Assembly: GCF_004010195.1 (NCBI RefSeq)
Contig: NC_057712.1
Span: 94,717,591 to 94,781,590, forward strand
Length of the DNA stretch: 64,000 bases
Source: Chiloscyllium plagiosum
Taxonomy: Eukaryota
Direction: 5' to 3'
This document shows positions 32,778-51,402 of this stretch, in pieces; within the stretch, counting starts at the first letter, position 1, and each line of letters begins with the position of its first letter. The position numbers and the translations under genes were made by a program. The notes beneath the pieces are model-generated. The model did not search any database, was not told the origin of the DNA, and saw nothing but the letters and a program-made list of their open reading frames with translations.

Positions 32778-32978
32778 AAAGGACTGCAGATGCTGGAAAT
32801 CAGAAACAGAAACAAAACAGAAATTTCTGGAAAAACTCAGCAGGTCTGGCAGCATCTGTGGAGAGAAGGCAAAATTAATGTTTCGGGTCCAGTGACCTTT
32901 CTTCAGTTAATTCTGATTTCTCTCCACAGATGTTGGCAGACCTGTTGAGTTTTTACAGCAATTTCTGTTTTTGTTTCT
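32778..32978. mobile_element. Second Penelope family pLTR, inverted pair, with hammerhead variant
   Basis: Minus arm 32778-32906 contains CUGAAGA-A-AGGUC ACUG GACCC-GAAAC; plus arm 32907-32978 is its inverted copy. Confidence 0.8.
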
Positions 32979-34015
32979 TTTCATTAATTCTCCTTTAATG
33001 CCTGCAACTTATTTTAGGATGCCTGTCATATCAGCTCCCATTAACATAACTCCAAACATTTAACTGCATACTGTGCGTAGAGTAACAGATACTCAAAGAT
33101 ATAAATCAATCTAGTCACAACCCTAGGCCTGTCAAACCTTATCCACCCACCCTAACATCACAACAGAGAATTTGACCTTTAGGATAGAAAATTCATTCAT
33201 TATTCATTTGTTCTCTGCCAGAAAGCAGACCTTTGGCTCATTGTTTGCTGATATATCAACTGGAATGGTTTCTGTGCAATTTTTGTCAAATTGTTTGTTT
33301 GTTTTGCCATTAGTTTAATGTAAAGATATGTCACTGTTTATTCCGGCTTATGTGTATAATTGTTTGACCCTGAAAGGGTTCATGCTGAGGGATACATTAA
33401 GCACTGCCCACTATGAAGACATCAAATGGACTCTGGTGGATGAATAGCTCTCAATCTTGAAGGAGATCTGCCGACCAATGAAGTTTCCCTCAGAGTCCTG
33501 AGCTATTGTGTATCATAGCAATATAACTTGTATCTGATGGCAATCATGCAATAGACAGCAACTTGTTTAAAGACAAATGCCTCTTCTCGTTAACCGGCCA
33601 GTGGTTTACTTGACCATATTAGACCAAACAGGTCTATAAATCCCATAGAGGATGTCAGCAGCAAATATACTCCACGATGATAAATAGTCCAGGTAGCCGT
33701 AATAATGCAGTGTCAGTGGTGAGCATCACTTTATCTTACAACACAGTAAGCAACAGTGTGTATTCAGACACAGCTTTATGAGAGCTCCTTGTGCAGTCAG
33801 TCAACAGCCAAAAGAACTGAATGTTCCAGAACTCTGCAGAAGAGCAACTCATGACAAGATTCAACAAAACAGAAACTACCATCACAAGAAACAGCATTTC
33901 TGACCTGAAAAGAGAAGTGCAGAAACAATTGTGAGCTCAGAGCTACGTGGAATTGGAACACAAGTCACACCTGGCATTTCCATATTGTATGTGCTGCTAG
34001 TGACTGTAGGAATGG

Positions 34016-34239
34016 TGAAAGTGAGGACTACAGGTGCTGGAGATTAGAATCGAGAGTGCGGTGCTGGAACAGCACAGTAGGTCAGACAGCATCTGAGGAG
34101 CAGGAGAATTGACGTTTCGGGCAAAAGCCTTTCATCAGTAATGAGCTCATTCCTGATGAAGGGCTTTTGCCCAAAACGTCGATTCTCCTGCTCCTCAGAT
34201 GCTGCCTGACCTGCTGTGCTTTCTCAGCACCCCACTCTC
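34016..34239. mobile_element. Palindromic Penelope pLTR insertion with two hammerhead motifs and 14-bp TSD
   Basis: Arms are centred on atgagctcat (34141-34150). TSD gactgtaggaatgg at 34002-34015 and 34240-34253. Confidence 0.92.
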
Positions 34240-34699
34240 GACTGTAGGAATGGATCCTGTGTTAAGGTTTAGCCAAACAACAAATGGACATCAAAGGCTA
34301 CATGTGCGAAGTTGTAATATCTGATGGGCAAGAGGAAAACATTCAAAAATATGGTGCAGTTACAGGCAAAGAAGCCAAACATAAGCAAAGGACTTATAAC
34401 TCTGAAGGGGTTAATGCTGAGGAGTACATTAAGCACTGCTCAATATGACAAAGCCATATCACCTTGGGTGGGAGAACACTTCTAGATCTTAAAGTAGATT
34501 TAACTACCTTCTAGGTCAGTTTCAGAGGCTTTGTAAAATTGGACAGAATCTTACCAGGCTCTGAGTGCCATGGTAGAATGATGTGTAGCAAGAACACTTT
34601 GCGTTCAGGGGAAAAGCACCAGTTCATGAACTGATCCAGGCTGTATCTCACAGTTCTTCATTTCTCTGACAGTGTTCACTCAATCTGAACCAACCTGGA

Positions 34700-35680
34700 T
34701 GCGTGCAGTATCCCTGACCTGCCTTGCCTTTTTGTGCATTGCCTTCTTAGCCAGAGTTTTCCCCTGAATATTATTACTGCCTTGTCAACCCAGTTAGCAG
34801 AGACACAAAGCAGGGAACCCTATCAGAGTTGTCAGCAGGTCTCAATCCAGTCAAAGGGGACTACCTTTGTTCAGGGGATCCTGGCACATTCAAGGGGAGC
34901 CGATGATACTAGATTAGGTTCTGCTTGGGGAGGTCAGAGTCAGGATTCTCTCCTCATAAAGGGTGAGAAGCTAAATGACAGCCAGCACACCATCTATCCA
35001 TCTGCCCTGTTAAAAGGCTGTTTTGCTGCTGGCATAAGAGAGAAAGAGAGACAGAGACATGTTACACAGAAGATGACGTGGTTCACACAGCTAATATTGT
35101 TGGTTGAGGTGGGAGGGTTTTCCAAGTAAATTAGCAAACTGTTGGAGGGCATGCAGTGTTCATGGTGTCAGAGGTTGGTGTGGGTGACACTGAGTGAGAT
35201 CTTGCAGGCAATAGTGAGAGTGGTGGAGCACAAGCCTTGGTGGGAGGTGGGAGTTGGGTATCATAGTAGAGATAGATTGAGTGTAAGATATCAGAGAGAG
35301 GGTGCCACTTATACTGGCAGATTGGAGAAGGTCATTGACCTTCTTCCCAGTGTTGGGCATTCCTCCAGATGGCTGAGGCTACTCAGGTGGTAACCTTAGA
35401 CCAGGCTGGCATGGTCTGGGGTCATGGTCTGTACTGCTGGTCCAGAGGAAAGAAGACATCCTACTTGTGCACTACCTTGTAGAGCAGGACCTCTGCAACC
35501 ATGCCCACAAAGTAGGCACTATACTCCCCCTGTCTGGGGTAAATGTCAGGAACAGGTGCAGGGCGGCTCTTGACTGATAGTGTCTGTCCAGGCACAAAGA
35601 AGGAACACTTTAATATGGTGCCAGTGCCAAGGATGGCAGTCAATTCCATATCTCTTTTAAATGGGTTTTGTGCCATTGAT
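34700..35680 (-). mobile_element. PIF/Harbinger Myb/SANT relic
   Basis: Minus FVGMVAEVLLYKVVHK*DVFFPLDQQ...QTMPAWSKV...KKVNDLLQSA, then an intron-like tract, then LTLYEERILTLT (34932-34967). Confidence 0.65.
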
Positions 35681-35698
35681 GACACATGGTAAGATGGG

Positions 35699-35824
35699 CT
35701 GAAGAAGGGCTGAGGCCCGAAATGTCGATTCTCCTGCTCCTTGGATGCTGCCTGACCTGCTGCGCTTTTCCAGCAACACATTTTCAGCTCTGATCTCCAG
35801 CATCTGCAGTCCTCACTTTTTCCT
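35699..35824 (+). mobile_element. 126-bp Penelope pLTR insertion starting exactly at the hammerhead core, 15-bp TSD
   Basis: ctgaagaagggctgaggcccgaaatgtcgatt...ctcactttttcct. TSD acatggtaagatggg at 35684-35698 and 35825-35839. Confidence 0.93.
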
Positions 35825-38566
35825 ACATGGTAAGATGGGACAGGTAATCCAATGTGATATTCATTGGAAGTACTGAATCACCATTAATGTCTTGAGTTTG
35901 ATAAAATATTTCAAGAAACATTCATTGGCCTTGTGGAAATAAGCAGTCCAACAAACTCAACATCACTTATACTTCAGAAAAAACCCAAAAGATTCAGCTC
36001 ATAGTCTATCATGAAATAAACCACATCTTGTTTAAGAGACAAGCATTTTCTCCTTGCATTATCTATTGGTTTTCCTCTACCACACTGGACCAAATTGACC
36101 CCTACAGATTTCAACCTAAAAGGAGGATGATGGCAGCACCTCAATGTAAGACCATAGGACTATAAGACATAGGAGTGGAAGTAAGGCCATTTGGCCCATC
36201 GAGTCCAATCCGCCATTTAATCATGGTGGATGGGCATTTCAAGTCCACTTAGCTGCACTCTCCCTGTACCTCTTAATTCCTTGTGAGATCAAGAATTTAT
36301 GAATTTCTGCCTTGAAGACATTAAACATGCTGCCCTCCAATCCACTCCGTGGCAATGAATTCCACAGACCCATCACTCTCTGGTTGAAGAAATGTGTCCT
36401 CATTTCCATTCTAAATTGATCCCCTCTAATTCTAAGGCTGTGCATCCCCGCCTAACAGAAACAAATTCCCAGCGTCCACCCTTCCCAAGCCATGCATTAT
36501 CTTGTAAGCTTCTATTAGATCTCCCCTCAAACGTCTAAACTCTGATAAATACAATCCCAGGATCCTCAGCTGTTTATTGTATGTTAGGCCTACCGTTCCA
36601 GGGATCATCCTTGTGAATCTCCGCTGGACATGCTCCAGTGCCAGTATGCCCTTCCTGAGGTGTGGGACCCAAAATTGGACATAGTATTCTAAATGGGGCC
36701 TAACTAGAGCTTTATAAAGTCTCAGAAGCACATCGCTGCTTTTATATTCCAACCCTGTTGAGATAAATTACAACATTACATTCGCTTTCTTAATCATGGA
36801 CTCAACCTGTTAGTCAACCTTTAGAGAATCCTGGACTAGCACTCCCAGATCCCTTTGTACTTTGGCTTTATGAATTTTCTCACTGTTTAGAAAGTAGTCT
36901 GTGCCTGTATTCTTTTTTCCAAAGTGCAATACCTTACATTTGCTCACATTTAAATTCATCAGCCATTTTCCGGACCACTCTCCTAACCTGTCTAAATCTT
37001 TCTGCAGCCTCCCCACCTCCTCAGTACTACCAGGCTGTCCACCTAACTTCATATCATCGGCAAACTTCACCAGAATGCCCCCAGTCCCTCAATCCAGATC
37101 ATTAATATATAAAGTGAATAACTGTGGCCCAATACTGAACCCTGAGGGACACCACTTGTCACCGGCTACCATTGCGAAAAAGAATCTTTTATTCCAACTC
37201 TCTGCCTTCTGTCAGTCAATCCGCAATCCATGCCAGTAGCTCACCTCAAACACCGTGGGCCCTCACCTTACTCAGCAGCCTCCTGTGAGGCACCTTATCA
37301 AAGGCCTTTTGGAAGTCTAGATAGATAGCATCCACTGGGTTTCCCTGGTCCAACCTACTTGTTACCTCTTCAAAAAATTCTAACAGGTTTGTCAGGCACA
37401 ACTTCCCCTTACTAAGCCCAAACTGATTTGTTCTAATCTGACCCTGCACTTCCAAGAATTTAGAAATCTCATCCTTAACGATGGATTCTAGAATTTTGCC
37501 AACAACCGAGATTAAGCTAATGATCCTATAATTTTCAATCTTTTGTCTTGATCCTTTCTTGAACAAGATGGTTACAACCGCAATTTTCCAATCGTCTGGG
37601 CCTTTCCCTGACTCCAGTGACTATTGAAAGATCACAATCAATGCCTCCGCTATTTCCTCAGCCACCTCCCTCAGAACTCTAGGATGTAGCCTGTCGGGGC
37701 TAGGAGGTTTATCTATTTTTAGATATTTTAGCTTTTCTAGCACTTTCTCTTTTGTAATGGCTACCATACCCAACTCTGCCCCCTGACTCTCCTTAATTGT
37801 TGGAATATTACTCATGTCTTCCACTTTAAAGACTGACGCAAAATATCTTCAGCTATTTCCTTATCTCCCATCACTAGCCTTCCAGCTTCAGTTTGGAGCA
37901 GCCAAATGTCTACTTTTTCCTCTCATTTGTTTCTTTTGTATTGGAAGAAACTTTTACTATCATTTCTAATATAACTGGCTAGCCTACCTTCATATTTGAT
38001 CCTCTTCTACCTTAATTCTCTCTTTGCTATCGTCTGTTTGTTTTTGTAGTCTTCCCAATCATCTGATTTCCCAGTGCTCTTGGAACCTCTGTACTGTGTC
38101 CTTAATTACACCCAGAAACTCCTGCCATTGTTGCTCTACTGTCTTCCCACTAGGCTCTGCTTCTAGTCGATTTTCATCAGTTCCTCTCTCATACTTCTCT
38201 AATTACCTTTATTTAACTGTAACACCATTACATCCAATTTTGCTTTCTCTCTTTCAAACTGCAGATTGAACTCTACTATATTATGATCGCTGCCTCCTAA
38301 GTGTTTCCTTACTTTAAGATATTTTATAAAGTCTGGCTCATTACATAGCACTAAGTCCAATGTGCCGTTGTTCCAAAAAGCCATCCTGTAAGCATTCCAT
38401 GAATTGCCTTACTTTGGATCCACCAGCAACATTATTCACCCAGTCCATTTGCATATTGAAGCCACCCATGATCACCGTGAAATTGTCTTTCTGACATGCC
38501 CTATCTATTTCCCGGTATATCTTGCGCCCCTGGTCCTGACCACTGTTAGGAGGTCTGTACATAACT

Positions 38567-50970: not shown

Positions 50971-51192
50971 CTCAGGCGAAAGTGAGGACTGCAGATCCTG
51001 AAGGTTAGAGTCGAGAGTGTGGTGCTGGAAAAGCACAGCAGGTCAGGTAGCATCCGAGGAGCAGGAAAATCGATGTTTCGGACAAAAGCCCTTCATTAGG
51101 GTTACCTGATGAAGGGCTTTTGCTCGAAACGTCAATTTTCCTGCTCCTCGGATGCTACCTGACCTGCTGTGCTTTTCCAGCACCACACTCTC
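50971..51192. mobile_element. Palindromic Penelope pLTR insertion with two hammerhead motifs, 13-bp TSD
   Basis: Arms are centred at ~51102. TSD gacttacttcctt at 50958-50970 and 51193-51205. Confidence 0.92.
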
Positions 51193-51402
51193 GACTTACT
51201 TCCTTTCCAGCAGCCTCTTTCACTAACACTGTGTGCTGAGTATCTTGATATGCTGGGATTGGTATTGCCCCATGTGGAGCAGGTTTGCCTGATTACTCTG
51301 GTCCTGAGCAGTGTTTTTCAACTATTCCTCTGTGATTACCCTTTTCGCGTCCTCCAGTTCCTTATGGACAGTTTTTATTTCCTGCTCTGATCCCAGTAAC
51401 TG

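Follow-up and report, generated by a model that had tools for sequence, protein, structure and literature searches.

A hammerhead-bearing palindrome in Chiloscyllium plagiosum, probably formed by twin priming of a Penelope-like element

The palindromic insertion at 34002..34253 of the 64,000-nucleotide stretch of Chiloscyllium plagiosum DNA analysed here (the window) is a TSD-flanked, head-to-head pair of truncated Penelope-like pLTR ends, one with a tail and one without. Both arms were probably made in one insertion by twin priming, each cut target strand priming its own cDNA, a reading that rests on family statistics drawn from genomic copies. The locus itself is an old, dead stub, and its architecture of inverted pLTRs, tail, TSD and apex palindrome is already published for Penelope-like elements (PLEs) (PMC3846280; PMC8557442). 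It is therefore of little weight in itself; the family to which it belongs matters moderately, and the rules that emerge at family level may constitute new evidence on the open question of PLE mechanism.

The insertion is enclosed by an exact 14-bp TSD, GACTGTAGGAATGG, a 14-mer found only twice in the window, and the 224 bp between the two copies (34016-34239) consist of inverted arms that abut between 34145 and 34146 with zero spacer (Table 1). The arms pair at 84 of 94 positions up to the TSD, or at 87 of 98 when GACT is included, and the predicted RNA fold of the hairpin (-173.4 kcal/mol; z -18.35) was matched by none of 200 shuffles. Two hammerhead cores diverge from the apex, beginning at 34138 (-) and 34153 (+). 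The original prediction had described just such a 224-bp insert, with a 14-bp TSD, a hairpin and two diverging hammerheads, and is borne out in these respects; its further claim of a single integration event is upheld by the presence of one TSD around both arms and by the assignment of both arms to subfamily C. The long arm ends at -4 (strict -1) and the short arm at -35, and both begin at -7 (or -9), which is 5' of the family's hot spot at -4. Where the subfamily reference has GACT, the left arm reads GATT. Diverged 110-nt direct copies (72%) that flank the insertion at 33367-33476 and 34399-34508 are unrelated to it.

Table 1. Features of the palindromic insertion, in window coordinates.
Feature	Position	Strand	Remark
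TSD, left copy	34002..34015	+	14 bp; last 2 nt also match the element continuation (long-arm microhomology)
Long arm	34016..34145	-	5'-truncated PLE pLTR (subfamily C) starting 7 nt ahead of the CUGA core; ends at the distal (L) site
One-sided tail	34016..34047	-	~32-35 nt from the S (proximal) site to the L (distal) site; no pairing partner in the hairpin; definition of the tail follows PMC11167929
Minimal hammerhead motif, long arm	34107..34142	-	Core letters intact, stem I broken
Apex ATGAGCTCAT	34141..34150	.	Blunt join of two -7 starts, or 4-nt AGCT overlap if a single-C upstream variant was the template
Short arm	34146..34239	+	Same pLTR segment to the proximal (S) site; end 34243 if GACT is counted as element
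Minimal hammerhead motif, short arm	34149..34184	+	G12>A at 34173; predicted inactive
TSD, right copy	34240..34253	+	Opens with GACT, 4 nt shared with the element (short-arm microhomology)

Arms were classified against six subfamily references. The family hammerhead is of the minimal type with a palindromic ACGU, and its CUGANGA and GAAAC-GUH boxes are accompanied by helices I and II in five of the six references, the sixth having GUU. A scan of the whole window with Rfam returned no family at gathering score. At the locus the left-arm motif keeps its core while its 4-bp stem I is broken, and the substitution in the right-arm motif falls within the GAAA box. Minimal hammerheads with a palindromic ACGU have been proposed to act as dimers, and those described share with the present family a short helix I, a larger helix II and palindromic helix III positions; closely spaced opposite-strand pairs have, moreover, already been noted in Schistosoma, as they are here (PMC4209133). 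Unlike the minimal hammerheads of that account, both motifs at the locus are damaged and predicted to be locked inside a long hairpin. A short frame starting MLPDLL lies 46 nt after the core in 6/6 references despite indels (34191-34241, plus strand, at the locus). In full subfamily A copies (L167, L170, L179) it apparently extends for about 42 codons and overlaps the start of the main ORF, and it is a possible upstream ORF.

A linker of the form CX2-5CxxC before the endonuclease characterizes Neptune and Nematis (PMC8557442). Translations of subfamily A (L143, L145) contain a CCHH motif and a C-X4-C-X2-C linker, by which the predicted parent is an endonuclease-bearing PLE of the Neptune type, the linker motif being common to Nematis. 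The end of a GIY-YIG endonuclease lies upstream of related arms, C-type copies included; the Pfam GIY-YIG model was matched by one of three pieces, at an E value of 0.059, which is below the cut-off. Homologous arms also precede the start of the ORF in subfamily A and in one E copy, and full copies continue through the long-arm end into the ORF. The long-arm end is therefore an internal site, and not, as had been supposed of the sequence ctcactttca, the natural end of the pLTR. For subfamily C itself, a pattern search for such run-through copies gave six matches, none of which continued into the ORF.

The abundance of the family was gauged from a blind sample of 132 stretches, each 10 kb long and taken at set points of a grid, comprising 1.286 Mb without N, which yielded 294 arms and 72 head-to-head pairs, or about 56 per Mb. 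Extrapolation gives about 2 x 10^5 pairs genome-wide, a figure that we read as of order 10^5 because the sample takes in large contigs only. A genome search with the locus (3.56 Gb) told the same story, all 40 candidates scored of 6205 matching on both strands. The locus, put forward as remarkable, is thus ordinary, being one of order 10^5. From the 72 blind pairs, five were dropped for touching a locus edge or N, leaving 67, and three further wide-gap pairs of another family were removed, leaving 64; the 29 loci chosen for their likeness to the query are left out of all blind counts. Subfamily C, with a median identity of about 91%, is older than A, B and E.

Both arms of a pair belong to the same subfamily in 61 of the 64 blind pairs, against an expectation of 27%, so that the arms of differing subfamily named beforehand as a refuting result are absent as a general pattern. 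This concordance bears directly on the notion that two independent insertions, or a later rearrangement, brought two solo copies into head-to-head position. Such copies are indeed common in both lengths and three of the 64 pairs were called discordant, but a single exact TSD surrounds both arms at the locus and the first 80 stretches held 39 head-to-head pairs as opposed to no tail-to-tail pair; with the concordance of the remaining 61 pairs, these observations leave independent insertion scarcely credible.

A further possibility is that master hairpins are copied in their entirety, which would make the palindrome a non-autonomous mobile unit in its own right, MITE- or retrozyme-like. High copy number, similar size and the recurrence of some apexes would suit such a unit, yet apex position and filler vary from copy to copy, the -7/-7 apex of the locus occurs in none of the 64 blind pairs, the same long-plus-short design is found at 4-5 kb with coding arms (L143, L145), and tandem units are absent. 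This very improbable reading is already largely refuted. Two specific assignments were likewise rejected: a non-LTR retrozyme, since head-to-tail tandem units are absent and the locus is one inverted pair, and a MITE or DNA transposon, since the ends are made unequal by the tail, the apex varies among copies and the parent encodes a PLE endonuclease. In the first sample together with the window, direct neighbours numbered 3 versus 41 head-to-head. Head-to-head insertions on the kilobase scale, with coding arms, were observed at L143:671-5910, L145:744-5201 and L148:6238-8863. At positions 1-760 of the window, a minus-strand frame resembling the N-terminal region of the element lies beside a plus-strand subfamily E pLTR, and probably belongs to a longer inverted insertion that extends beyond the window.

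The evidence that carries twin priming lies in where the arms end. Among the 64 blind pairs, 48 combine a long with a short arm, none has two long arms, the arms are both short in one, and in 15 an end is non-canonical; the tail is thereby confined to one end in 48 of 64, as at the locus. Solo copies (n = 97) end at the long site in 44 cases and at the short site in 38, and with the two sites used about equally, free choice would therefore yield same-type pairs in half of all cases. Instead, each site is used once in 48 of the 49 pairs whose ends are canonical (p 9e-14), which lends support to the proposed priming of both target nicks. The spacing between the sites has a precedent in the PLE tail, which has been tied to two adjacent start sites of reverse transcription (PMC11167929). 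Since the GACT stop coincides with this published tail boundary, it is a fixed site and not a chance landing. The original prediction of a microhomology-directed stop at GACT consequently stands in part only: there is a 4-nt overlap with the subfamily reference at this junction, but the proximal stop is a site fixed across the family. A TSD is found in only 34 of the 48 long-plus-short blind pairs (10-19 bp by strict exact extension; 14 bp at the locus), a caveat on twin priming. In L210:5517, the only short-plus-short pair, a few bases at one end match the tail end, and the arm concerned may be a distal-site start that slipped.

Overlap between TSD and element of at least 2 nt was present at 13 of 23 clean short junctions and at 12 of 19 clean long junctions, compared with 18% and 17%, respectively, in a simulated null of 1454 insertions. 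Junctions with gaps or mismatches numbered 11 and 15 of 34, and results are therefore given both ways; when unclean junctions are scored as misses, the proportions become 13/34 and 12/34 (p 0.005 and 0.007). A looser junction caller gave a weaker result, with p 0.42 for the long junction over all 65. At the locus, the overlap with the subfamily reference is 4 nt at the short junction, as had been proposed, and 2 nt at the long junction, which had been missed. Thus far the genomic junctions suggest that the RNA, at each of the two sites, could pair with the 3' end of the target strand primed there. Initiation by PAc, the Poseidon element of Anolis, is said to need no homology (PMC11167929), a statement that overlaps as short as these need not contradict. 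A solo short copy at L035:3990-4110 has a 5' junction with an inverted TSD end at a GGCC palindrome, a target-end snap-back.

The apex offers a second line of evidence. In the 48 long-plus-short pairs, the short arm reaches furthest 5' in 26 (by 8 nt or more in 22 of these), the long arm in 17 and the two are equal in five; within the young subfamilies, the short arm reaches further in 10 and the long arm in 8 of 20. Apexes of the 64 pairs comprise 34 with three or more filler bases and 21 with overlaps of 1-6 nt, the rest being blunt or nearly so, a mixture that would be expected of end joining, although later deletion could also generate uneven apexes. The random ends and apexes that were to count as refuting are absent, the blind sample being far from random in both. 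The arms of a pair furthermore have non-reference letters in common at 0.0195 per site, as opposed to 0.0085 for shuffled partners (91 pairs; 0/1000 shuffles), for which arm-to-arm conversion could be an alternative source.

These data weigh against a simple fold-back, in which cDNA begun at the distal site would snap back near the ribozyme, copy itself and meet the second target end by microhomology. The idea is close to the self-priming proposed for PLEs (PMC3846280), and several features accord with it: perfect palindromic apexes recur, the 20-nt apex of the locus having 64 exact copies genome-wide; variants and subfamily are common to the arms; microhomology occurs at the short junction; and short snap-back copies of a target end exist (L035). 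Fold-back demands, however, that the long arm extend furthest 5', which is contradicted by the 26 of 48 pairs with a longer-reaching short arm unless later deletions intervened. Solo copies stop at the same short site, 7 of the 26 short solos that start near the core carrying a TSD, identical apex overlap is seen in both directions (+9/-1 and -1/+9), and no sequence by which a cDNA could self-pair to give ATGAGCTCAT is present in the upstream references. Fold-back, one of two routes advanced in the original prediction, is for these reasons unlikely. For the locus apex, an upstream variant containing AGCT was present in 3 of 20 inspected loci, and it is therefore possible that two cDNA ends annealed at the self-complementary AGCT; the apex may have arisen in this way.

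The other route advanced, in which two separate RNAs, paired through the ACGU palindrome into a hammerhead dimer, would each prime one nick, draws on the family motif being a minimal hammerhead of the kind proposed to dimerize (PMC4209133), and two RNAs would account for arms that cover the same sequence without strand displacement. A symmetric dimer nevertheless gives no reason for 48 long-plus-short pairs as against 0 and 1 of the same type, arm starts avoid the cut site, and ribozyme mutants of PAc insert normally in vitro (PMC11167929). The dimer is accordingly unsupported by the family data, and we judge it quite unlikely.

Where the arms start is informative in its own right. The starts of 75 of 128 arms fall within 10 nt of the CUGA core, with a peak at -4 to -1. 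A 5' end set by the ribozyme cut was considered and rejected, as six of the 128 starts lie within 2 nt of the cut and 36 are scattered over +11..+60. Position -4 is the A of TCATTC, which we take to be an initiator-like motif, and TTATC is conserved 30-32 nt upstream in 6/6 references. An extra G before the start was seen in 10 of 24 cases in a small sample, and in one of seven C-type starts at -4; the small-sample result was not significant, and genome-wide counts were therefore made. Across subfamily A, the letter before start -4 is G in 5546 matches versus A or T in 3654 (60% G), and the letter before start -3 is G in 1352 versus C or T in 8260 (14% G). Within the first 40 G matches, four solos have exactly one G between TSD and element and two pairs have one G between the arms; in 14 the G could stem from the other arm or from the TSD. 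A subfamily with a native G at -5 was dismissed as the source, since these 40 matches have no upstream sequence in common and one is a point change. An untemplated 5' G in L1 and SVA has been attributed to cap copying (PMC3287187), and the extra G of subfamily A similarly suggests run-off at a capped RNA end. An internal promoter has been described in Penelope of D. virilis (PMC2377424). In an RNA run of which about 2% was read, too thin to address silence or start sites, depth was zero on the unique flanks, repeat reads were family-wide and starts were unclustered.

Taken together, a course of events can be proposed for twin priming at the locus. Cuts by the endonuclease in the two strands would be offset by about 14 bp. 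The long arm would then start from the top-strand end (..GG-3'), annealed to the RNA at the distal site, and the short arm from the bottom-strand end (..AGTC-3'), annealed to GACU at the proximal site, which lies about 35 nt further upstream. Both cDNAs would pass the hammerhead and halt within a few bases of its 5' side, most likely where, or close to where, a transcript initiated in the pLTR begins; their ends would then be joined, with the ribozyme presumably a passenger at the 5' end of the RNA. The template may have been a single RNA copied with strand displacement, a tandem RNA that supplied two units, or a pair of RNAs of the same source; that a common template served at the locus is taken from the family, because the locus arms have 0 non-reference letters in common over 84 sites.

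It is tempting to extend this course to a more specific form, which we hold tentatively: one RNP, probably a protein dimer with a single pLTR-initiated capped RNA, may prime both strands at two fixed sites 35 nt apart, with run-off at the capped end followed by end joining. Priming would proceed by 1-4-nt pairing, and the cap would be copied as the extra G just before the hammerhead. If true, a single obligatory and asymmetric reaction of twin priming would by default yield the inverted pLTRs, the tails and the many mini-insertions, and neither a fold-back nor a ribozyme step would be involved.

Insertions of EN+ PLEs are described as having inverted pLTRs, a one-sided tail and a TSD, and the mechanism of the inverted structure is left open or ascribed to self-priming (PMC3846280; PMC8557442); the origin of both tandem and inverted PLE structures is indeed characterized as still undefined (PMC8557442). 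The stubs reported here agree with those units in their head-to-head inverted, 5'-truncated pLTRs, their TSD, the palindrome at the inverted junction and the 30-40-bp tail on one end only, and differ from the published units in consisting of two pLTR stubs with no ORF between them and in existing in order 10^5 copies. The closest biochemical parallel is PAc, for which cleavage and extension of both strands has been described, starting from two adjacent internal sites on the RNA, such that in PAc and in the present family alike two adjacent internal start sites bound the tail; its upstream hammerhead is dispensable for insertion and its protein is predicted to act as a dimer (PMC11167929). In contrast to PAc as there described, the family has a Neptune-type linker and 1-4-nt microhomology at both genomic junctions, and each insertion uses each site once.

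A more distant parallel is LINE-1, in which the arms produced by twin priming are usually without overlap. The second site of L1 is free, whereas the two sites of the present family are fixed and its two arms span one and the same stretch. The two systems nevertheless have in common that the second target end primes internally on the RNA by microhomology, that the TSD is kept and that two cDNAs are end-joined (PMC11702581). Non-LTR retrozymes resemble the stub in being short, non-coding, hammerhead-bearing and PLE-derived, but are defined by head-to-tail tandem units, in place of which one inverted pair is found here (bioRxiv 10.64898/2026.07.22.740005).

The genome thus offers order 10^5 natural reaction products that bear on the origin of the inverted structures of PLEs. 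Three regularities are predictive for PAc in vitro: the use of each site once per insertion, microhomology at both outer junctions and an extra G at one 5' stop. None of the three was found stated for PLEs in searches of open-access papers, nor did these searches yield anything to the point on Penelope twin priming, non-templated G in PLEs or Neptune in cartilaginous fish. Hairpins at such a density could perhaps also feed dsRNA pathways; for the locus hairpin, the long dsRNA envisaged in the original prediction is a potential only.

An empty site was sought by aligning four runs of two related organisms to 33400-34900. Contigs join the left flank to the long arm in one organism and the short arm to the right flank in the other, none spanning the insert, and among the 15 joints listed, with 297 more beyond the list, there was no insert-skipping one that would mark an empty site. 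An arm standing alone at orthologous loci, which was to count against a single event, was absent, the relatives showing the junctions of both arms. As the relatives carry insertion junctions, the insertion appears to predate its host's splits from both.

Other insertions of related appearance were observed in the window and the sampled loci. A second palindromic stub of subfamily C lies at 50978-51194, its 13-bp TSD also starting with GACT and its arms having three non-reference letters in common. A palindromic stub of a different, older hammerhead-bearing family, with a similar long-plus-short look, occupies 32780-32982. At 35684-35839 a subfamily A copy, solo and long, begins exactly at the CUGA core and is flanked by an exact 15-bp TSD, and L236:1286-1760 holds a nested insertion, in which one palindromic stub lies within a stub of a different subfamily.
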